From Candidatus Sumerlaeales bacterium (GTDB lineage Bacteria > Sumerlaeota > Sumerlaeia > Sumerlaeales > Sumerlaeaceae), in contig JBBSQY010000003.1 in the NCBI GenBank assembly GCA_038243585.1, positions 1-64,000 on the forward strand: a stretch of DNA of 64,000 nt, read 5' to 3'. The notes under the pieces were generated by a model that searched no databases, was not told where the DNA came from, and was given only the letters and a program-made list of their open reading frames with translations. The position numbers and the translations under genes are program-made. This document shows, piece by piece, positions 25,711-41,894 of this stretch (position 1 is the first letter of the stretch; every line of letters starts with the position of its first letter).

Positions 25711-27213
25711 ATGAAAACGTGGATAGCAATCGTTGCGGTATTGGCACAAGTGTTTTGCCTGACCGGAGCCGGCTGGGCTCGGCCCTTTACTAGAATTGTT
25801 TCGCCGGTGCAGGATCAATGCGTGCCTGGTCCGGACGTTACTGTAAAATTTGAGGCCGGCGGCATGACCCTTGGCGCTTCCGCATGGAATTTGCACTTCA
25901 TGCTCGACAATGAACCTTTCCAAATACAATATGACGGCAACCACGCTCATGTGTTTAAGAACGTGCGCCCGGGCTCTCATACGGTGCGGGTTTATGCAGC
26001 CAATGCCATGCAGGAAGCCATTCCGGGCACTCAGTCTACGGTCAGCTTCAGCGTGGCTTATGCGGATAAAGCCAATTATGTAATGCCAGGCAGCCCAACC
26101 CTTACTTATAACCTGCCGCAAGGGGAGTACTTCGGGATTGACGCTGCTGACATAACTGTGGATTTTCTATTAGAAAATGCTGTCGTAGCACCTGGGGGAT
26201 ACCAGGTGGCTTATTACGTGGATGGTCGGCGTTTTCTAATTCAGGATCAATGTGGTCCTCGCCATGTGAAAAACCTGAACCCTGGCCTGCACCGCGTCAG
26301 GATTGAATTGCAGAATCAGTTTGGTGACTTGGTTCCGGGTGCGTTTAATTCGACAGAACGTTCTATTTTGATCTCTCCGAGCAGAGTTACGAAAAGCCCG
26401 TCAACTGTTGATGATGGCTACCATGGACTGCCAAGACTGGACTCCATCAAAGGCAGCATGACAATGGGACAACACTGGTCTGCGACTGCGCCGGTAGAGC
26501 CGCTTTCGCAGGCGGATATCGAGAAGCAGGCATCGCTGACCGTGCGTAACGCAAAAGGCGAAAGAGTTGGCGTTCGTGAGGGACGAGTTCTTAATCCCCT
26601 CGACGCGGCAACTGATGCGGACCCGATCGAGACGCCAGCGAAACAATTTACCGTGCGCGCCGGCGGCGAACCTGATTCAGAGACAATGGACCTGGATGAA
26701 GGGAATGCCAGCAACGTTCTCCTTGGAACTGTATTTGTAGATAATAGCGACGATGACGACGAAGATGTGGAGTCTGAGACAACAGCCACGGTTGTGAACA
26801 ATGCCGACGCAGAAACACCTGTGGCAAAGAGCGCTGTAAAGGCTACGACTCGTCGCCGGGCGGACGGTACCTCGACAACCGTGATCCAGACGACGGCAAC
26901 ACAACGCCTGGCGGATCGACCAGGAATGCGTACCGTGGAAACTCAAACAAGCCGTACCGTTTATCCTTCGGGAAACCTCACGACCGCGACTAAACAAGCG
27001 ACTAAACAAACCACCGAGACGCTGACTAAGCCAGAGAGTAAACAGACAACCGAGACTGGGAAACAGGATGCGTCAGATAAAACAACCACTCAAGCTCTGA
27101 CGCGACGAACGGGCAACAAACAGACCTCTGAAACTGGAACCTCGGGCGCAGGACGCGAAAGAAAAGCCGGAAGCCGCAGAGAGACTAGCCCGCTGTTGCC
27201 TGCTATAAATTAA
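25711..27213 (+). CDS. Secreted hypothetical protein: two tandem Ig-like repeats plus disordered Thr/Lys-rich tail
   Basis: Signal peptide; repeated F/VKN-x-x-PGxH-x-VR beta units; acidic stretch then KQTTET-like repeats. Confidence 0.8.
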   Translation: MKTWIAIVAVLAQVFCLTGAGWARPFTRIVSPVQDQCVPGPDVTVKFEAGGMTLGASAWNLHFMLDNEPFQIQYDGNHAHVFKNVRPGSHTVRVYAANAMQEAIPGTQSTVSFSVAYADKANYVMPGSPTLTYNLPQGEYFGIDAADITVDFLLENAVVAPGGYQVAYYVDGRRFLIQDQCGPRHVKNLNPGLHRVRIELQNQFGDLVPGAFNSTERSILISPSRVTKSPSTVDDGYHGLPRLDSIKGSMTMGQHWSATAPVEPLSQADIEKQASLTVRNAKGERVGVREGRVLNPLDAATDADPIETPAKQFTVRAGGEPDSETMDLDEGNASNVLLGTVFVDNSDDDDEDVESETTATVVNNADAETPVAKSAVKATTRRRADGTSTTVIQTTATQRLADRPGMRTVETQTSRTVYPSGNLTTATKQATKQTTETLTKPESKQTTETGKQDASDKTTTQALTRRTGNKQTSETGTSGAGRERKAGSRRETSPLLPAIN

Positions 27214-31011: not shown

Positions 31012-31695
31012 CTATGTAATTATTGGCTCTCTGTCGGGATCTGTGACAGGGAAAATGTTTGCTTCGCTTAGCTTTGCCAGCATTACGTCGTAATCCAGGG
31101 TTTGGGCAAGAATCATTTCTGAGTCCGTGACGCCCAGGCAGAGCAGCAGGTCTACTGTTCCCGATGGCAGTTCGAATTGGGGAGTCAGGTGCTCGGCTTC
31201 AACTATTATTAAATTCTTAATCAAGGAGGCTGGCCTCTGCGGATCAATGCTCGTATGGAGCGGAATGCGTCCGCCAGCACAGACGGTTTCGCCCTGAAGC
31301 AGGCCGCTCGCGGCGAGTATATTGACGGCCATCAGCCAGTGGAGAACTTGAATCGCCCAAGGTGCTGCGACGGGGGTGTGCATCAGCAGTTCAAAGCCGA
31401 GGCCACTCGGTTCTGCCTTGTTTACTGTCGCGGGGTCTTCTCCCCATGGATTGCTTAGCGCCGTGGTTATATAGGACCAGTAAGGGAGCTTTTCTGTTGG
31501 GGACACTTCGAACACGCCATGAACGAGCCAGCGTGGATCAGGTTTCGCTTGGTGGCCCAGCCGTTGGAAAAGCTCGGGAGGAATGGTATGGACATGAGGG
31601 CCGACGGATCCAAACAGCTGTCTATACACTGTCTCTTCGCGGTGAGCCCACACGTCCTGAAACCACTTTTGCCATTCATCCTGGGTCGTAGTCAA
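31012..31695 (-). CDS. Suppressor-of-fused (SUFU) domain protein
   Basis: WSYITTALSN, GLGFELL, FELPSGTVDLLLCLGVTDSE, FPVTDPDR resemble bacterial SUFU domains. Confidence 0.8.
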   Translation of the reverse strand: MTTTQDEWQKWFQDVWAHREETVYRQLFGSVGPHVHTIPPELFQRLGHQAKPDPRWLVHGVFEVSPTEKLPYWSYITTALSNPWGEDPATVNKAEPSGLGFELLMHTPVAAPWAIQVLHWLMAVNILAASGLLQGETVCAGGRIPLHTSIDPQRPASLIKNLIIVEAEHLTPQFELPSGTVDLLLCLGVTDSEMILAQTLDYDVMLAKLSEANIFPVTDPDREPIIT

Positions 31696-32835: not shown

Positions 32836-33024
32836 TCAGGAAGCTTTTACAACCCGGTTGGACTTTAGGCAATTGGTACAAACTTTAATGCGTCTTACGC
32901 CACCGGCGACTTTCGCACGAACCCGCTGCAGGTTTGGCAACCAGCGACGCCGCGTCTTGTTATTGGCATGGCTTACATTGTTGCCCGTTGCAGGGCCTTT
33001 TCCACAAACTTGGCATTTTGCCAT
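32836..33024 (-). CDS. rpmB: 50S ribosomal protein L28 (Cys-containing form)
   Basis: [29 protein letters not shown]...[15 protein letters not shown]. Confidence 0.97.
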
Positions 33025-33278
33025 TTCAGTCACTCCAAAAAAAATTACCGAGGTCAGCCGCGTCTGATTACATTTGTTGCAACCCGACTGACAGCCGGAA
33101 TCGTTATGCGCTATTAGGCCTATTATTCAATTACACAACGCGACCTACGACAGATTTCGGCTCAGTTCGTGCTGCAATCAATTGTAAAAACACCGTACAA
33201 ATCCCTTGCCCTTGCCATACTCAGAGGGCCTCTTCGATACAGTTAACCGCTACAAAAATCTTTAAAAGGTTCGGGCAT

Positions 33279-34367
33279 TTGGCTTATACGCAACAAGTAG
33301 ACAGGTATGTTTTCCATAAGCCCCTATGGCGTAAGGTGCTGCCGCTTTTCCTTTTAATACTTATATGGATAGTGCCGCTTTTTTTGTGGCGCGGCACCGC
33401 CATCAAGTTACCGGAACCTTTTGACACCTGGCCAGCGATTGGATTGGATTGGCTGGCTCAAGTAGGAATTACCTTTAAAGATACCTTTCCGATTGCGTTG
33501 GTCCTCACCGCGGTCCTGGTGTTCTGGTGGTATAAAGCTTTTGAGATCCTTATTATCTCCGCCGATGCCATTACCCGCAGTTCGCTGCTGGGTTTTCGGA
33601 GGACCCTGCGCTGGGTTGATGTGGACGAGGTCCTTATCGATCACCTGGAAGCTCGTATGGAAGGAGATGCGACCGCGCGCAAAACCCTTTACCTGTATGA
33701 GGTTCCCAAAGGAATTTTCGGCCTACGCCGTCGGATGAAAATTAACAACCGGCAATTCGATGGATTTGAGGATGTGGAACGGATTGCGGTTCTGGTCAGC
33801 GTGCCGGCCGTAGCGGAACGGCTTCGCCAGCGTGTTGAAGCCACCAAAAAGTCTGCTACCTTTGCCGTGCTCGATCCTGGAGAGCTTCTGATGGGTAGCC
33901 TTTCGGTGCTGCTGGGTCTGCTGATGGTGGCTGCGGCTTTTTATGACACGCTCTGGCTGCTCTTTGAAATCCCTTACGAGATGGCCGTTCGGCCCGCTGT
34001 TATTGTGGCGGGAGTGCTTCTTTTCTTGTTTGGTTTGTTCAAATTCTTCTATAAGCAAATCGGGGTCGACGGAGAAAATGTTTACATTATGCGCGCTAGA
34101 TGGGTGCTTAAGCGTATCCCAATTGATACTATCGCTGATATCCAGATTCGCGAAAATCAGATGCGTGTGTATGCATTTGTAAAAGATCCGGAAATCCCGA
34201 AACAAGTGTTTAAGACCAACAAGTACGTGCGCAACCGCGGCGTAATGCTGCGGCTTATCCGAGAGATCTACGATGTGCGCCGTAATATGGATAATGTCCC
34301 TATTCCTGGGTTGTCAGGCGGGGCTCAGCCTGCGGCAGATCACAATCAAGGCATTGATCCGATTTGA
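33279..34367 (+). CDS. Membrane protein with two TM-hairpin plus PH-like repeats
   Basis: Two repeats of paired TM helices followed by a beta-rich segment (LRWVDVDEV; IPIDTIADI). TTG start inferred. Confidence 0.7.
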   Translation: MAYTQQVDRYVFHKPLWRKVLPLFLLILIWIVPLFLWRGTAIKLPEPFDTWPAIGLDWLAQVGITFKDTFPIALVLTAVLVFWWYKAFEILIISADAITRSSLLGFRRTLRWVDVDEVLIDHLEARMEGDATARKTLYLYEVPKGIFGLRRRMKINNRQFDGFEDVERIAVLVSVPAVAERLRQRVEATKKSATFAVLDPGELLMGSLSVLLGLLMVAAAFYDTLWLLFEIPYEMAVRPAVIVAGVLLFLFGLFKFFYKQIGVDGENVYIMRARWVLKRIPIDTIADIQIRENQMRVYAFVKDPEIPKQVFKTNKYVRNRGVMLRLIREIYDVRRNMDNVPIPGLSGGAQPAADHNQGIDPI

Positions 34368-34579: not shown

Positions 34580-36853
34580 ATGTTTGACCCAGAAACCATC
34601 TCCAATTTTCCGACTGCGCCCGGCGTTTACATTATGAAGAATGCCGCGGGTGATGTGATTTATGTCGGCAAGGCTGCCAACCTCCGCAACCGGGTGCGGA
34701 ATTACTTTTCTCAGACGGGCGACGGGCGTTATACAGTGCCGTTTCTTGTGCGTCACGTCGAGACAATCGAGACGATAATCGCGTCGTCAGAAAAAGACGC
34801 TTTTCTTCTCGAAAACAACCTCATTAAAAAGTATCGCCCGCGCTATAATATCCGTCTACGCGACGACAAGACGTACCTCTCCCTCCGGTTCCGCATGAGC
34901 CACCAGTATCCGCGGCTGGAAATGACGCGGGTGCGCCGAGCGGAGTTGGGCAGCGCAGGTACGACAGCAATGGGCACGGGCGAAGCTCTTACCGAGCCTA
35001 TCGAAGAAAAGAAAAAACGTGTCAAGCGCGACAACGACCTTTATTTCGGCCCGTTTACATCCTCTGGCGCTGTCCGTGAAACGCTGCGTTTTCTTCTTAA
35101 GGCATTCCCCGTTCGCACCTGCCGCGATTCGGTGTTTCGGAATCGCACCCGCCCATGTATTCTGCATGATGTCGGCAAATGTTGCGCTCCTTGCACCGAA
35201 CAGGTAACGCCAGAGCATTACGCGAACCTGGTGCAGCGCGTGGCTACTTTCTTTAGCGGAAAAGATGATGAAGTGCGCCGCACGCTTAGCCTTCGCATGG
35301 AGGAGCTGGCGGAGAACCTTGAATTCGAAAAAGCGGCACTGATACGGGATCGTCTGAACGCGCTGGATCGTACGTTGGAGTCGCACCAAAGCGAGTCGCA
35401 CATGGGAGGGGACAGGGACGTGATAGCGATCGCCAGTTCGCAGGGACGCTCTCTGGTGGTCATTCAGCAGTTTCGCCGCGGTGTTCTGATCCACTCGACT
35501 GATTTTTATACGCGCAACTATGAGCAGGAAAACAGCGAGGTTCTCTACTCGTTTATATCTCAGCAGTACGACGGCCTCGCGGGGCAGATTCCACCGGAAG
35601 TCCTGGTGAGCGAAGAGCCGCAGGATTGCGCGCTGCTGGAGGAGTGGCTTCGCGAGCAGCGCGTCGGGGCAGTGCGGCTTCATATGCCCCAACGGGGCAA
35701 GCTGAACGCTGTCACTCATACGGCCCTGCAGAACGCCCGCATGGGCTTAAATCGCCGCCTGGGTGGAGAGCGCACGCGCGAAGAAACCTTGGAAGAGCTC
35801 AGCGAACGGCTAACTTTGGAACGTCCGCCGCGCACCATAGAATGTCTGGATATTTCCAATATCATGGGAGTCCTGGCGGTTGGATCTATCGTGCGTTTTG
35901 AAGACGGCGAGCCGGATAAATCCGGATACCGCCTCTATAGGATCCGGACCGTAGAGGGCAGCAACGATTTCGCAATGATACGAGAAGTAATGCTGCGGCG
36001 GTTTCGCCCGGAAAGTGATCGGGCGCGGGAGTTCCCAGATCTTTTTATTGTGGACGGGGGGAAGGGCCAGCTTGGCATGGCGGAAGAGGTTTTTCGCGAA
36101 CTGGGAATTACGGATGTGAGCCTGGCCGGTATGGCGAAGAGCCGCTTAAAGGTACGGGCTCCGCGCAAGTTTCCTGGCGTGATAACCGGACCTGCTGCGG
36201 ATCGGGTGTCAGAGCCACGGCCGGATACTTCAATTGATGGCACCGAGGCAAAGTCGATAAATGATTACTTTCCCGATGCGCCAGATTACGTGGGCGGAGA
36301 ACCTGAGGCGGACGAACCAGTTACCTTGAAAGCCCGGGAACGTTTCAGGCCACTTACGGTGCAAGGATATGGCAAGGAAGAGGTTATCCGATTTCGTACT
36401 GAAGAGCGCATCTTCCTGCCCGGACGGAAAAATCCGGTCACTTTTGCCACGAATTCGCCCGCGTTGTTTTTGCTTGAACGGATTCGAAACGAAACCCACC
36501 GCACGGCGATCAATTATCATAGAAAACTTCGGGAAAAAACCAACCGACGCAGTATGCTGGACGAAGTGCCGGGGGTGGGGCCAAAGCGCAAGGCATTGCT
36601 GCTGCGCCATTTTGGAAGTCTGACAGCGTTAAGGGCAGCGACGCCCGAGGATATTGCAGCGGTAGACGGAGTCAGCGCGGACGCTGCACAGAACGTTTAC
36701 GATTTCATCCATGCCCAGGGAGTTGCCCCGGCACCTGTCAAGATTGAAGTTGAAGAAGAATGGGTTACAGTGGACGAGGAACCGGATAATATAGGAAGCG
36801 AGAAGCCGGAGGATCTGCTGGACCCGTCCGATCGTCGGTCGGTGGACTTGTAG
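34580..36853 (+). CDS. uvrC: Excinuclease ABC subunit C
   Basis: PGVY...IYVGKA GIY-YIG domain, Cys cluster, UVR coiled coil, DISN and VDGGKGQ RNase H-like domain, HhH GVGPK. Confidence 0.97.
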   Translation: MFDPETISNFPTAPGVYIMKNAAGDVIYVGKAANLRNRVRNYFSQTGDGRYTVPFLVRHVETIETIIASSEKDAFLLENNLIKKYRPRYNIRLRDDKTYLSLRFRMSHQYPRLEMTRVRRAELGSAGTTAMGTGEALTEPIEEKKKRVKRDNDLYFGPFTSSGAVRETLRFLLKAFPVRTCRDSVFRNRTRPCILHDVGKCCAPCTEQVTPEHYANLVQRVATFFSGKDDEVRRTLSLRMEELAENLEFEKAALIRDRLNALDRTLESHQSESHMGGDRDVIAIASSQGRSLVVIQQFRRGVLIHSTDFYTRNYEQENSEVLYSFISQQYDGLAGQIPPEVLVSEEPQDCALLEEWLREQRVGAVRLHMPQRGKLNAVTHTALQNARMGLNRRLGGERTREETLEELSERLTLERPPRTIECLDISNIMGVLAVGSIVRFEDGEPDKSGYRLYRIRTVEGSNDFAMIREVMLRRFRPESDRAREFPDLFIVDGGKGQLGMAEEVFRELGITDVSLAGMAKSRLKVRAPRKFPGVITGPAADRVSEPRPDTSIDGTEAKSINDYFPDAPDYVGGEPEADEPVTLKARERFRPLTVQGYGKEEVIRFRTEERIFLPGRKNPVTFATNSPALFLLERIRNETHRTAINYHRKLREKTNRRSMLDEVPGVGPKRKALLLRHFGSLTALRAATPEDIAAVDGVSADAAQNVYDFIHAQGVAPAPVKIEVEEEWVTVDEEPDNIGSEKPEDLLDPSDRRSVDL

Positions 36854-36863
36854 CTTGTTCCGA

Positions 36864-36924
36864 GGGCTGCGTCGCTGCGCTCCTGACCCCCGGCTACCAC
36901 TCTGATGTCCCTCCGGGACAGGCG
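36864..36924 (+). repeat. 61-bp dispersed repeat, copy 2
   Basis: Homologous to 21610-21670; contains perfect TGTCCC-TCC-GGGACA hairpin. Confidence 0.8.
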
Positions 36925-37025
36925 TATATAATAAACGTTTAGTGATAGTCGAGTGACATCTGTTTTGTACTTTGGTGGGTTGTAGCGATTTGGGAGGATC
37001 CTGAATGCGTCTTTCGCTTGGGTTT

Positions 37026-37051
37026 ACACAGGCGGGTCGCCTATGCTACTT
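37026..37051 (+). repeat. REP-like 26-mer, copy 3
   Basis: ACACAGGCGGGTCGCCTATGCTACTT, one mismatch to copy 1. Confidence 0.85.
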
Positions 37052-37132
37052 CAGGTTTTTGGTCCTGTAAAGTGGCGCGATTTTGGTAAACACAGAGTGA
37101 CAATAGTTTGCATTATTCTGCATTGCGGCTGA

Positions 37133-38605
37133 CTAGTGCATTCCTGACTTGCTGTAGCCGTGGGCTGGGGCGAACCAGGCGAGGGCAAACAGAATTGTTC
37201 CAACCACTGAGAATCCGCAGATGGCCTGAAAGAACATGGACCAGCCGTAGTGTTCAGCAATATAGCCGACTCCTACGCCACTGATAATTCCGCTGAGATA
37301 CCCAAACAAGCCAGTCAGCCCAACGGCCGTCGCAGCCGCATGTTTGGTGGCAAGGTTGGCGACTGCAATTCCTACAAGCGCCTGAGGCCCATAGATACAG
37401 AAACCAGCAAGGCCCATGATTGTGGCTGCAACAAGCCCTGAGTCAAGGGGCAGCTTCCATAGAGCGAAGACAGCCGCGGTGCATCCGGCCATATAGAATA
37501 AACAGGTGCGCGAGCCGCGCCCGCCGAAGACATTGTCTGTCAGCCAGCCGGCCAACAACATGCCGAATATACCTGCAATTTCGAACGTGGCAGTGATCCA
37601 TGCGGCGTGGCTTAGGTCAAATCCTTTGGCCTCTTTAAAGACCGTTGGTGCCCAGTCGAAAATGGCGTACCGGACGGTGTAAACAAAGAAGTTGGCAATA
37701 GCAAAAATCCAGATGTAGGGGTTCGAAAACACTTTTTTCATGTAGCTGGACTTCGGATTTTCTTCCAGAGACTCGTAAAGATTCTCAGCAGTGTCCGGGT
37801 TAACATCATGGCTGGTCTGATCCAGCTTTTGATCGTCCAAAGTTTCCACCGGAGGCAGGCCGAGAGATTCCGGCGTGTCTTTTAAACTTATCCACAGGTA
37901 GATGGCTACGGTAGCTGCAATGGCGGCCGGAACATAGAACAACGATCGCCAACCAAAGCCTGTCGCCACAAGCAATCCGCCAAGAGCCACCACCCCTGCA
38001 GCGCCAACGGAGTGCGAAATATTCCACAACGACATGCGGGTAGCCAGAATTTTCGGTGGGAACCAGTGGGTTAAAAGGCGCGCACAGGGTGGAAACCCCA
38101 TTCCCTGAAACCACCCGTTGGCCATCCAGATCAACCCGAATGCCCAAGCCATCGCGCTGAATCCGAAAATGGCCGAGGTCGCGCCTTTTGTAAGCATGGC
38201 ACTGGCGGCAAAAGCCACATTCAGGACTGCGCAAACAACAAGGCCCACAACCATAAAAACTCGCGCGTTTGACCGGTCTCCCAGGAAACCGTTCACGAAT
38301 TTGCTCACGCCATAGAGGATACCGTGGAGTGTCAGAAAAAGGCCCAGGCTGGTTTTGGTAATTCCCAGGTCCTGTTCCATGAGCGGCATGGCGACGCTTA
38401 AATTCTTACGGACAAAGTAAAACGCCGCATAGCCAATCATTGTGGCGATGAGGATCTCCCTTTGATATTTCCGGTATCCCGCCCGAACAGCGGTAGCGTC
38501 GGTAATCCTGTGGGAAGCGGGCGGATCTGGCTGGAAAATTCCGAACACACCTTGTTTCTTTTCTGCGCCATTATATATGTTTGGCTGCCTGGGTGACTGG
38601 CTCAT
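37133..38605 (-). CDS. MFS organophosphate:Pi antiporter (GlpT/UhpC/PgtP family)
   Basis: GYAAFYFVRKN, NGWFQGMG, WNISHSVG, YTVRY, YGPQ, GLTGLFGY; both substrate-binding Arg positions appear present. Confidence 0.93.
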   Translation of the reverse strand: MSQSPRQPNIYNGAEKKQGVFGIFQPDPPASHRITDATAVRAGYRKYQREILIATMIGYAAFYFVRKNLSVAMPLMEQDLGITKTSLGLFLTLHGILYGVSKFVNGFLGDRSNARVFMVVGLVVCAVLNVAFAASAMLTKGATSAIFGFSAMAWAFGLIWMANGWFQGMGFPPCARLLTHWFPPKILATRMSLWNISHSVGAAGVVALGGLLVATGFGWRSLFYVPAAIAATVAIYLWISLKDTPESLGLPPVETLDDQKLDQTSHDVNPDTAENLYESLEENPKSSYMKKVFSNPYIWIFAIANFFVYTVRYAIFDWAPTVFKEAKGFDLSHAAWITATFEIAGIFGMLLAGWLTDNVFGGRGSRTCLFYMAGCTAAVFALWKLPLDSGLVAATIMGLAGFCIYGPQALVGIAVANLATKHAAATAVGLTGLFGYLSGIISGVGVGYIAEHYGWSMFFQAICGFSVVGTILFALAWFAPAHGYSKSGMH

Positions 38606-38608
38606 GCA

Positions 38609-39958
38609 TTAAACCTTTGCTGCGGCGGATTGAAAAAGAGAAGCCATGGCTTTTTCAAACAGTCCTGCTCGGTGGACAAGATCTAGAACAGTGAATCGGC
38701 GACGAATATGGAGGGCCTTGCGATAGGCCTCTTCCATTTTGTCCGCTGAAATACCAATGGCCTCACTGCTGCTCGGTGCGCCGGCTTTTTGCAGACTGTC
38801 GGCAAGTTGTGCCTGTGAGGGAATCTGCTTTTGCAGGCGTTTTTTAAGTTCCGGCCACGCTTGTTTGAGCGTCAGTAGTTGCTGCCTCAGCTCGTCTGCG
38901 GGTATGTACTTTTCCCGCTGTTCTTCCAAGGCCTTGATGCGAATTTCTTCGATGGTGAAGAGACCGTTTATTTCGGCTTCCATCTCATCCCATGTGGGCC
39001 ATTGGGACACGGCTGCTTCAATATTCAGCGATTCGAGAGGCTGCGTATAAAGGAACTCATAAAGCGCGGAACTGGCAAGGGTCCCGATGCCAACTTTAAA
39101 CCCGTGGCTCACGGAATGACCTTCGAACTTGTGGCTTTCCATATCCCACAGATGGCTGAACTGATGTTCAGCGCCGGAAGCGGGGCGGCTGTTTTGCAGA
39201 TGCTGCATGGCGAAGCCGCCCATCATAAGGCCGGCGACCAGAGACTCCAGCGCGGCAGAGTCTGCGGTTGCGATGCCTGCGGGGTTGGCCAGCCATTCTC
39301 GCAGGTTGCCCTGCACCATTTGCCATGCAGGCGGATCGATGGGCTCGATGCCGAGAGCGTTGGCAACAATCCAGTCGGCCCCCGCCGGCAGCTTGGCAAG
39401 GAGGTCCGCATAGCCACTGGCGTTCATAGAAGGGGGGGCCTGGGCAATGACATTCAGATCGGCTACGACGGCCAGCGGAGCGGGACAATTGAAAGTCTGC
39501 TTGCTGCCTTTAAACGTGATGGAAGCGCCGTAGGCGGTATAACCGTCCATGCTCGCTGCAGTTGCCACGCACATATAACGGCGTCCGGAATGGCAGGCCG
39601 CCAGTTTAGTAATATCGTTAACACTGCCTGACCCTACGGCCACTGGTATGGCGTCGGTTTGATTTAGTGCCTCTTCTAACTGATCGACAAACTTGTACTC
39701 CGCATAGATGGACGGATCTTCGAAAATAAATGGTTTATCGCAGTCGATGTCTTGCGCCAGAAGGGCATCATAAACCTTTCTGCCGCAGATTTTAAAGGTC
39801 TCTGCATCCGCTACAATTAGAGCTTTCCGGCCGGAGAAACAGGTGTGGAATGTTCGAGCCACATCCGAGGCATTATCGCGACCAATAACTAGATATTTAG
39901 TATCGGTAGCAGCGGTAAGGGCCTTGTCTAAGTCAGCTTGGTATGGGGACTGAGTCAT
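38609..39958 (-). CDS. sn-glycerol-1-phosphate dehydrogenase (AraM/EgsA family)
   Basis: GSGSVNDITK, TAASMDGY, ASGYAD, SRPASGAEHQFSH, HGFKVG metal ligands, RRRFTVL. Confidence 0.88.
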   Translation of the reverse strand: MTQSPYQADLDKALTAATDTKYLVIGRDNASDVARTFHTCFSGRKALIVADAETFKICGRKVYDALLAQDIDCDKPFIFEDPSIYAEYKFVDQLEEALNQTDAIPVAVGSGSVNDITKLAACHSGRRYMCVATAASMDGYTAYGASITFKGSKQTFNCPAPLAVVADLNVIAQAPPSMNASGYADLLAKLPAGADWIVANALGIEPIDPPAWQMVQGNLREWLANPAGIATADSAALESLVAGLMMGGFAMQHLQNSRPASGAEHQFSHLWDMESHKFEGHSVSHGFKVGIGTLASSALYEFLYTQPLESLNIEAAVSQWPTWDEMEAEINGLFTIEEIRIKALEEQREKYIPADELRQQLLTLKQAWPELKKRLQKQIPSQAQLADSLQKAGAPSSSEAIGISADKMEEAYRKALHIRRRFTVLDLVHRAGLFEKAMASLFQSAAAKV

Positions 39959-39988
39959 GGGTGGAAATCTTTCAAAGTATTAATGAAG

Positions 39989-40963
39989 CTAATTTGCGGC
40001 GGAAGTAGCGTCGTCGATCGACGCGGTGGGGAGATTGTAGTAATCTTTTATAGCTTTTCTGGTGGTTTCCGGATGATCTGTGGCGAAAGACATGAAGCCC
40101 AGGTCCAACAGTTTCCAGTAAGCTTCAGCGCTTGTTCCGCCATAAGGCAGGGTCTGGTAGAGTATGTTATTTTCACGTAGAACATCTCCTGCGGAAATCA
40201 AAAACTTATCCGACGAGGTAAACGGATTTACAAAATCGCGACGGATACTTTCGGCAGATGTGGTCAGATGCGTGTGAATCTGAACCTGGGTAATAGCCTC
40301 AAAGTCCCGCGCTTTAGCAGCCTCAAATTTGGTTGCCTGTTCCGCTTCGGTTTTGCCGCTCACCCATAAAAGTGTTTCCGATTTCGGCACCAGTTTTTTC
40401 CATTCGACAATCTGGTCATGGTGCTGGGACGCCAGCACGACCTGACCTTCGATCTTGTGCTTTTTTACCAGATCTGCCAGCTTGGAAAGGTCCACTTTTT
40501 TGATATCCAGATACAAATGGCGCTCTGGCTTTCCCGCCATCAGGGCAAACACATCCTCTATAGTCGCCACTCTGCGATTGAGAAATCTATCCCCCAGCCA
40601 AGAGCCGACGTCCAACATTTTTAGTTCGTCAAATGTCACATCTTCGACGCCTTTTTTTGCCAATTCTGGCGATGCGTTCTTTACGACGCGTTGGAAGTTT
40701 GTGTCATGAAAGGCGACAATTACGCCGTCGCTGGTCGTGCGCACGTCCGCTTCCGGATAGGTTCCAAGCTTCCAACCAAGCTCAAAAGCCTCTACGGTAT
40801 TTTCCGGGGCAAGATCGCCGGCGCCGCGGTGGCTTTGAACTATGGCCTGCTCGGGCTTCATGTGGCTGCGTATATTCCATTCGGCTTGAGTCACTTCCTG
40901 AGCTGTTGCTGTGAATGCAGCAACGCAGAAAAGTGCGGTTGTTAAAATGGTGGGAGTTTTCAT
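39989..40963 (-). CDS. Secreted glycerophosphodiester phosphodiesterase
   Basis: Signal peptide; SHRGAG..APENT, EADVRTTSDG...HD, LDIK, ATDHP; AAGGAG RBS. Confidence 0.92.
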   Translation of the reverse strand: MKTPTILTTALFCVAAFTATAQEVTQAEWNIRSHMKPEQAIVQSHRGAGDLAPENTVEAFELGWKLGTYPEADVRTTSDGVIVAFHDTNFQRVVKNASPELAKKGVEDVTFDELKMLDVGSWLGDRFLNRRVATIEDVFALMAGKPERHLYLDIKKVDLSKLADLVKKHKIEGQVVLASQHHDQIVEWKKLVPKSETLLWVSGKTEAEQATKFEAAKARDFEAITQVQIHTHLTTSAESIRRDFVNPFTSSDKFLISAGDVLRENNILYQTLPYGGTSAEAYWKLLDLGFMSFATDHPETTRKAIKDYYNLPTASIDDATSAAN

Positions 40964-41126
40964 AATATCTCCTTATTATTTGCTCTAGATGTAAATCAGG
41001 ATAAGAAGATTATGTTTGTGTCCAGAAAAAACATTCTGGTATAAAAATTCAGGAGTCTGCTGCTCAGTGGTTACAGGCGTCATTTCATGCTTGAACATAC
41101 GTAATCGTTAAACGTAGAGCTTCCTT

Positions 41127-41894
41127 GTGTTGACCAAAAGAATCATTCCGTGCCTTGACGTTAAAGACGGCCGTGTTGTCAAAGGGGTTAACTTTGTAAA
41201 CCTCGTGGATGCCGGTGACCCCGTTGAGGCGGCAGTAGCCTATGATAAGGCCGGCGCCGATGAGCTGGTTTTTCTCGATATAACAGCCACCCACGAGCGG
41301 CGCGCCACCATGATCGATGTGGTACAGCGAACCGCTGCGCAGGCATTTATGCCGGTGACGGTCGGCGGTGGCATTCGCACTCTGGATGACATAAAAAGTC
41401 TGCTTCGCGCCGGCGCGGATAAAATTTCTCTTAATACGTGTGCCGTTGAGCACCCTGAGTTTGTCAAGCAGGCCTCGCGGCGTTTCGGCACGCAGTGCAT
41501 AGTAGTCGCGATTGATGCGAAGCGCTCGAACAGGCCAGATATGGATTACGAAGTTTATACTCACGGTGGGCGAAAGGCGCGAAGCCTGGACGCCGTTGAA
41601 TGGGCAAAGCTCATGGAAAAGTATGGGGCTGGGGAGATTTTGCTGACCAGCATGGATCGCGACGGTACCCGCGACGGCTATGATATTGAACTTACCAGGG
41701 CGATTAGCGAGGCTGTTAATATTCCGGTGATTGCGTCCGGCGGAGTCGGTAACTTACAGCACCTGGTGGACGGCATAGTCGACGGCAAGGCGGACGCCGT
41801 ATTGGCGGCTTCCATTTTCCACTTCGGAATTCACACGGTGCGTGAAGCCAAAGAATACATGGCGGGGCAGGGCGTTGCAGTTCGGCTGGAGTAG
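41127..41894 (+). CDS. hisF: Imidazole glycerol phosphate synthase subunit HisF
   Basis: [52 protein letters not shown]. Confidence 0.98.

Follow-up and report, generated by a model that had tools for sequence, protein, structure and literature searches.

In Escherichia coli, a periplasmic glycerophosphodiester phosphodiesterase (GDPD), GlpQ, and the antiporter GlpT are encoded in one operon, glpTQ, and the imported glycerol phosphate is then oxidised to dihydroxyacetone phosphate (DHAP) by the FAD enzyme GlpD or GlpABC. Here, we describe a three-gene operon of related design in the window, by which we mean a 64,000-nucleotide stretch of a Candidatus Sumerlaeales genome (contig JBBSQY010000003.1). 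It encodes an exported GDPD (P0001), an AraM-like dehydrogenase (P0002) and a GlpT-like antiporter (P0003). Unlike in E. coli, the oxidising enzyme is predicted to be NAD(P)-dependent and belongs to the family of the opposite enantiomer, sn-glycerol-1-phosphate (G1P); the transporter falls in a separate clade, the GDPD lacks a Gln/Phe pair of GlpQ, and no regulator gene, of the GlpR type or any other, lies inside the operon. We consider the chances about evenly balanced that the operon is a stereo-inverted, that is mirror-image, three-step catabolic counterpart of the glp module with G1P as its substrate.

Archaeal lipids are built on G1P, which is also the repeating unit of lipoteichoic acid (LTA) and the head group of phosphatidylglycerol (PG) and is therefore plentiful in soils, oceans and guts. 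AraM and EgsA act with PcrB/GGGPS in ether-lipid synthesis, for which they supply the G1P; PcrB/GGGPS is, in the available text of PMC4244643, the sole known bacterial consumer of G1P. In the operon, by contrast, the dehydrogenase is accompanied by an importer and a hydrolase. Bacteria are also on record as taking up G1P for use as a carbon source: the marine bacterium Phaeobacter grows on G1P as sole carbon source, and the carriers of marine bacteria, GpxBCD and UgpB, are ATP-driven ABC binding-protein systems unrelated to MFS (major facilitator superfamily) antiporters such as P0003 (PMC12718374, 2025, in its available text). The same text, dated December 2025, states that a G1P transporter was undocumented before these two ABC systems, and refers to G1P dehydrogenase in a biosynthetic capacity only; it names no cytoplasmic G1P-oxidising enzyme, and the one "dehydrogenase" in its supplement is a chloroacetaldehyde dehydrogenase. 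Finally, GDPD-family enzymes are known to act on poly(glycerol phosphate) or PG-derived lipids, as do the GlpQ teichoicase of Bacillus subtilis and Staphylococcus aureus and the lysophosphatidylglycerol phospholipase D of S. aureus. GlpQ itself is strictly sn-3-specific and cannot attack LTA according to the accessible part of PMC7086022, whereas P0001 belongs to a divergent subfamily.

The operon and its three proteins

The operon consists of three co-oriented open reading frames (ORFs) on the minus strand, separated by gaps of 30 nt and then 3 nt, and the three genes are presumably co-transcribed. The initial annotation had given this order, orientation and spacing, and the ORF listing and translations agree with it in every particular. 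Its family labels, namely a GDPD, an AraM/EgsA-type dehydrogenase and an MFS protein of the organophosphate:phosphate antiporter (OPA) family, are likewise those returned by Pfam and NCBIfam.

P0002 has the two-domain Fe-ADH_2/DHQS-like fold and matched the Fe-ADH_2 family (PF13685; 113 bits, 1.3e-32). It had been assigned to the AraM/EgsA family, and it is nearest to B. subtilis AraM in both sequence and fold. Among solved structures, the best sequence match was 9h4x, titled as the Ni2+-dependent G1P dehydrogenase AraM of B. subtilis (3.1e-42), compared with 4.8e-19 for the G1P dehydrogenase of M. jannaschii and 1.6e-9 for the glycerol dehydrogenase GldA. An AlphaFold (AF2) model, made with 37 relatives as input, reached a pLDDT (predicted local distance difference test) of 93.3, and its top fold matches were 9h4x, 3ce9 and 4rfl, with a TM-score of 0.84 on the target for 9h4x. 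D185, H265 and H285 of P0002 align with the Asp/His/His metal ligands common to AraM and the M. jannaschii enzyme, and we take them, by homology, to have the same role. The motif SRPASGxEH..SH (R258-S261-G262) is also common to these two enzymes, and the three residues and the SRPASGxEH motif were invariant in the 37-sequence family alignment (A1). Unlike AraM, P0002 carries an insert of about 52 additional residues (residues 301-376 against 326-349 of AraM). The family is large, with 3759 matches at E <= 1e-3 and 835 at E <= 1e-30 among 1.84 billion representatives; its named sources include Verrucomicrobia, Opitutaceae and Tepidisphaeraceae.

The best NCBIfam model for P0002 was that of the archaeal G1P dehydrogenase (NF002022, 166.6 bits), and there were weak matches to the models of GldA (45 bits) and of glycolaldehyde reductase (42 bits). 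The latter two would suit a dehydrogenase that acts on an unphosphorylated alcohol or aldehyde, either glycolaldehyde or the glycerol freed alongside sn-glycerol-3-phosphate (G3P) from glycerophosphoglycerol (a GldA-like role), while the GDPD and the transporter handle ordinary G3P. A protein of haloarchaea that carried the annotation G1P dehydrogenase proved to be a glycolaldehyde reductase with no notable activity on G1P or DHAP, as the available text of PMC9700705 describes, and no glycerol kinase over the cut-off was found in the window's genome. We nevertheless regard such a substrate as highly unlikely: the G1P dehydrogenase model scores far higher, the SRPASGxEH motif is common to both solved G1P dehydrogenases, and the dehydrogenase co-evolves with a dedicated clade of organophosphate antiporters.

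The antiporter of the operon, P0003, matched MFS_1 in Pfam (175 bits), the OPA subfamily model TIGR00881 (356 bits) and, at 195 bits, the UhpT model. Its best solved relative by sequence was E. coli GlpT (1pw4, 7.6e-87), with which it is 38% identical, and it keeps R45, K80, H165 and R269 of that protein (alignment A3), which we assume to be substrate-binding residues. A tree of 25 transporters, from which fragments shorter than 400 aa were left out, joined all 20 full-length transporters adjacent to the dehydrogenase in a single clade with 100/100 support. Excluded from this clade were E. coli GlpT, UhpT and UhpC, the second GlpT-like gene of the window's genome and the transporter of one further locus (L017). 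P0003 neither reaches the GlpT equivalog score (TIGR00712/NF008433) nor groups with E. coli GlpT.

P0001 was matched by PF03009 at 85 bits (cut-off 23.6; 1.1e-23). Its N-terminus (MKTPTILTTALFCVAAFTATA/QE) has a hydrophobic core, with a mean Kyte-Doolittle value of 1.76 over residues 5-21, followed by A-T-A, and so fits a Sec signal peptide; among the three operon proteins, only the GDPD has an N-terminal export leader. Aligned with E. coli GlpQ (alignment A2), it keeps H45-R46, E53, E71/D73, H86-D87 and the K of LDIK, and the catalytic His-Arg pair, the Glu/Asp metal ligands and the second His (H36, R37, E63, D65 and H78 in E. coli numbering) were invariant throughout that alignment. The third calcium ligand of GlpQ, a Glu, is an Asp in P0001. 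In addition, where GlpQ has the motif "QCF", P0001 has "LASQ" and its orthologues linked to the dehydrogenase have LAS or TTT followed by P or T, so that the GDPD clade of the operon lacks both Gln188 and Phe190 of GlpQ. In the available text of PMC7086022, Gln188 is a ligand of the C3 hydroxyl of G3P, and Phe190 lies on the hydrophobic side of the cleft, the side that keeps sn-1 glycerophosphoryl groups from binding productively. The loss of this pair may hint at a changed stereospecificity; it is suggestive only, because cytoplasmic GDPDs such as 2pz0 lack the Gln as well. The second-best NCBIfam match of P0001 was the lysophosphatidylglycerol phospholipase D model, at 48 bits and far under its cut-off of 450.

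About 60 proteins of 577-637 aa (P0273-P0331), from Verrucomicrobiota, Planctomycetes and others, matched the 324-aa GDPD with up to 490 bits; they carry PF03009 alone and look like tandem double-domain versions of the same subfamily. Other relatives are fused to a sulfatase/phosphodiesterase domain (P0332) or to a nucleoside hydrolase domain (P0335).

Conservation of the gene neighbourhood

To describe the neighbourhood of the dehydrogenase, we used the best 80 of 557 metagenomic stretches that encode a relative, a sample that leans to close relatives and is not a census. Together with four further loci (L001, L002, L008 and L009) these gave 84 loci, which fell into 49 clusters when grouped at 85% identity of the dehydrogenase; one of these had 33 members, mostly on contigs labelled human-gut metagenome. 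Neighbours were assigned by seed-based family calls, and downstream counts were taken from the 41 clusters with at least 400 bp of downstream sequence. The next gene on the same strand encoded an OPA-type MFS protein in 24 of these 41 clusters, a NagD-type HAD phosphatase in six, an Ig/VWA protein in two and another MFS protein in one, and at least one phosphoester-module gene was present in 34. A GDPD of the operon's subtype lay directly upstream of the dehydrogenase in 6 of the 39 clusters with enough upstream sequence. NagD-type HAD phosphatases neighbour the dehydrogenase in 11 of the 41 lineages, a pairing that we take to resemble araL-araM; DeoR and SorC regulators, metallophosphoesterases and FGGY kinases recurred as well.

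Seven distinct proteins were found in which a leaderless GDPD of the operon's subtype is fused directly to the dehydrogenase. Four came from a Pfam scan of 12 long dehydrogenase relatives (P0124, P0127, P0128 and P0136, each a single-member cluster on one contig) and three from the precomputed domains of 67 longer GDPD relatives (P0334, P0336 and P0337, each one member sequence on one contig). Read-through artefacts are possible case by case, and the occurrence of seven divergent cases from different sources argues against them as the general explanation. Fusions of the dehydrogenase to RpiB (P0126), DUF1667 (P0139), a SorC domain (P0207) and a NadD-like domain (P0158) were each seen once, and 4 of the 12 long relatives scanned had no second domain. 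We had considered the CTP_transf_like domain of P0158 as TagD-like and dropped this candidate, as the N-terminal motif is more like that of NadD. The linkage to GDPD is scattered on a 56-row tree of the dehydrogenase: the starred branches force at least five changes, and the label was not clustered beyond shuffles (51 of 500).

Within the host's small phylum, a strong match to the dehydrogenase was present in 2 of 75 genomes, namely the window's own genome (G000, 89.7% complete) and one of its two congeners (G002); five more weak matches in the phylum are distant paralogues. G002 has the same order as the window, hisF-GDPD-dehydrogenase-MFS. In the other congener (G001, 81% complete), the GDPD adjoins hisF, and the dehydrogenase and the transporter are absent both there and elsewhere in the genome; the contrast between the congeners indicates that dehydrogenase and transporter come and go together. 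In other genera of the family, a hisA-like paralogue stands beside hisF (L112-L121) instead of the GDPD cassette (window positions 40964-41894). The neighbour of hisF thus differs by genus, and the cassette is the mark of a rearrangement of the his cluster specific to this genus. Among 401 Bacteroidota genomes sampled, the dehydrogenase was found in one, the Odoribacter metagenome-assembled genome (MAG) that was used as the centre; a Pedobacter MAG is the fourth carrier genome considered below.

The arrangement of dehydrogenase, transporter and GDPD is far beyond chance and recurs across many lineages, and the three genes are evolutionarily coupled. Taken together, the conserved adjacency, the dedicated transporter clade, the GDPD-dehydrogenase fusions and the way in which dehydrogenase and transporter are present or absent together within the genus support the view that the three genes form one functional module. 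The initial annotation had treated the trio as a single unit and had proposed the conservation of its neighbourhood as a check; the downstream transporters, the upstream GDPDs and the seven fusions counted above uphold that view. The opposite case, that the three genes are mere neighbours with no common function, could appeal to the missing regulator gene, to a search for sequencing runs that listed runs of DNA and none of RNA, and to the scans for transcription signals: these gave 7 promoter-like sites, where 3.9 +/- 2.1 were expected in shuffles, with no site above expectation in the divergent region upstream of the GDPD gene, and 8 terminator-like sites, where 5.7 +/- 2.7 were expected, with no convincing intrinsic terminator past the transporter gene. 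We find this case scarcely credible, with adjacency kept over dozens of lineages in at least two named phyla, with gene fusions, and with dehydrogenase and transporter gained or lost jointly.

The dehydrogenase of the Odoribacter MAG lies in a polysaccharide-utilisation-type locus (L008:80-13297) that contains SusC/SusD, a GDPD, a metallophosphoesterase, the AraM-like dehydrogenase, an OPA antiporter and a HAD phosphatase; a Big_2/beta-propeller protein, another MFS protein and another metallophosphoesterase are encoded there as well. The locus is a candidate for teichoic-acid or phosphoglycan utilisation in a gut Bacteroidota lineage.

A possible route for sn-glycerol-1-phosphate catabolism

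The module is real and conserved, and its role is most likely catabolic. In the route that we propose, the exported GDPD would cut glycerophosphodiesters in the periplasm or outside the cell and yield glycerol phosphate; likely substrates would be LTA fragments, glycerophosphoglycerol and PG head groups. The dedicated GlpT-like antiporter would then take in the monoester in exchange for phosphate, and the AraM-like dehydrogenase, working in the oxidative direction, would convert G1P and NAD(P)+ to DHAP, which would enter glycolysis. The identity and chirality of the substrate and the direction of the dehydrogenase reaction are our inferences. In particular, the assignment of G1P stereochemistry would follow from the homology to AraM in sequence and fold, the conserved metal ligands and the loss of the Gln/Phe pair of GlpQ.

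A catabolic role is favoured because no PcrB/GGGPS (PF01884) over the cut-off was found in four carrier genomes, namely G000, G002, the Odoribacter MAG and the Pedobacter MAG; G001, which has no dehydrogenase, gave a match of only 20 bits, below the cut-off. Neighbours at other loci also point to catabolism: DeoR/SorC regulators, GlpD-like enzymes, HAD phosphatases, metallophosphoesterases and the SusC/SusD locus. The catabolic context that had been suggested from the window is thus borne out by the absence of PcrB/GGGPS and by these neighbours.

The same evidence bears on the converse possibility, a chirality inverter for anabolic supply, in which imported G3P would be converted to DHAP by GlpD or GpsA and then to G1P by the AraM-like enzyme for some G1P product. 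The characterised members of the family, AraM and archaeal EgsA, are all biosynthetic in the available text of PMC4244643, GlpD-like FAD dehydrogenase genes lie beside the dehydrogenase in four loci (L023, L028, L033 and L047), and an LtaS-like gene is present elsewhere in G000. We judge an anabolic role to be distinctly unlikely, as PcrB/GGGPS was not found in the carrier genomes, the links of the dehydrogenase, fusions included, are with an importer and a hydrolase, the dehydrogenase lies within a SusC/SusD utilisation locus in the Odoribacter MAG, and its sporadic occurrence in the phylum and in Bacteroidota is unlike that of a core biosynthetic gene.

Besides the operon, the genome of the window has gpsA and a GlpD-like gene. 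It also has, next to a SorC regulator, a second gene of the GlpT type, and it encodes a second GDPD that retains the "QCF" motif of GlpQ. From these genes we conclude that the ordinary sn-3 route is present and that the trio is an extra system, and a separate substrate for the operon is plausible. The second GDPD (contig C7:93897-96968; L105:4897-7968) adjoins a 648-aa protein with a sulfatase-family domain at residues 284-555, which presumably resembles phosphoglycerol transferases of the LtaS/OpgB type. Enzymes of that type would make polymers that bear sn-1-glycerophosphate.

Several observations weigh against G1P catabolism. P0002 lies below the 413-bit cut-off of NF002022, P0003 reaches 350.5 bits where the GlpT model TIGR00712 has a cut-off of 632.55, and P0001 scores 27.3 and 59.2 bits with the GlpQ models NF008354 (cut-off 254) and NF006989 (cut-off 264). 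Annotation within the G1P dehydrogenase family can mislead, because the haloarchaeal protein discussed above turned out to be a glycolaldehyde reductase (PMC9700705), and the SRPASG motif is only presumed, from sequence comparison, to bind phosphate. Since characterised GlpQ orthologues free only sn-3 glycerol phosphate in the available text of PMC7086022, a GDPD that releases G1P would be unprecedented. In 8 of the 41 clusters, the next gene on the same strand belonged to none of the OPA-type MFS, HAD, other MFS and Ig/VWA groups, and the leaning of the metagenomic sample to close relatives limits all of these counts.

Finally, the gene directly after that of the transporter in one locus (L041) encodes RpiB, and P0126 is a fusion of RpiB with a dehydrogenase 50% identical to P0002; with these links a longer polyol phosphate fits better than G1P. 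The same architecture would then import another polyol phosphate (for example ribitol-5-phosphate or a tetritol phosphate) released from teichoic-acid-like polymers, the dehydrogenase would form a ketose phosphate, and RpiB or housekeeping isomerases would feed the pentose-phosphate pathway. The FGGY kinases, GlpD/EryB-like enzymes and SorC regulators at some loci are consistent with such a route. We consider it unlikely: RpiB accompanies just 1 of the 41 lineages and is absent from the window operon, P0003 keeps the GlpT residues and scores 350 bits with the GlpT model against 195 with that of UhpT, and the dehydrogenase is closest to AraM. Furthermore, the characterised GDPD enzymes all act on glycerophosphodiesters, as far as the available text of PMC7086022 covers them.

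With G1P as the substrate, the wider proposal is that a dedicated stereo-inverted counterpart of glp exists in several phyla, with a G1P-freeing GDPD subfamily, its own antiporter clade and a reversed G1P dehydrogenase; we place its probability slightly short of even. The phyla seen are the small phylum of the host, Verrucomicrobiota, Planctomycetota and Bacteroidota, the last including human-gut lineages. Our full-text literature search found no paper in which G1P dehydrogenase is catabolic or is tied to GlpT or GDPD, in agreement with the earlier view that the pathway is not known to be characterised; G1P uptake was already known (2025), and the new element would be catabolism based on G1P dehydrogenase. 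If the proposal is true, it would fill in the cytoplasmic step that is missing from the G1P recycling lately shown in marine bacteria, and a soil bacterium would scavenge glycerol phosphate from outside phosphodiesters by a route that the literature search did not find described. An "archaeal" enzyme family would have a widespread degradative role in Bacteria, and a catabolic reading would apply to thousands of bacterial genes now labelled "lipid-divide" biosynthetic G1P dehydrogenases. The proposal would also define a stereo-inverted GDPD and a clade of G1P antiporters, and a route for the turnover of teichoic acids and phospholipid head groups, including that in human-gut Bacteroidota, would become testable.

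Coordinates and flanking sequence

Table 1. Genes and intergenic features of the operon, in window positions.
Feature	Position	Strand	Basis
Exported GDPD phosphodiesterase P0001, 324 aa, first gene of the operon	39989..40963	-	PF03009 and N-terminal leader
AraM-like NAD(P)-dependent dehydrogenase P0002 (G1P dehydrogenase homologue), 449 aa	38609..39958	-	PF13685, NF002022, fold match
GlpT-like organophosphate:phosphate antiporter P0003 (OPA-family MFS), 490 aa	37133..38605	-	MFS_1, GlpT model, own clade
Divergent intergenic region between hisF (+) and the GDPD gene (-), presumed promoter	40964..41126	.	Sequence
Strong Shine-Dalgarno sequence AAGGAG ahead of the GDPD start codon	40969-40974	-	Sequence
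Convergent intergenic region between uvrC (+) and the transporter gene (-), presumed transcript end	36854..37132	.	ORF listing

The genes that flank the operon are housekeeping genes, encoding UvrC, HisF, a TPR protein, SpoVG and a GHMP kinase. No lipid-synthesis or arabinose genes adjoin the operon, and the claim that archaeal-type lipid and arabinose genes are missing next to it holds. An Rfam scan of positions 36700-41300 at E <= 1 gave zero matches, and the search for inverted repeats in both flanking intergenic regions gave just one 9-nt palindrome, within hisF.

A 250-aa ORF antisense within the dehydrogenase gene (38879-39631, +) is most likely spurious. Two long ORFs further away, of 500 aa (25711-27213, +) and 477 aa (32934-34367, +), had no Pfam match at E <= 1e-3. 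The UvrC of the window (34580-36853, +) has 757 aa, and its UvrC RNase H endonuclease domain was matched in two stretches; the split match suggests an insertion of about 100 residues relative to what we take to be the typical length of UvrC. In addition, a 227-aa protein (31012-31695, -), encoded downstream of a gene for a pyridoxal phosphate-dependent enzyme, contains a SUFU (Suppressor of fused) domain (PF05076, 2.7e-20).

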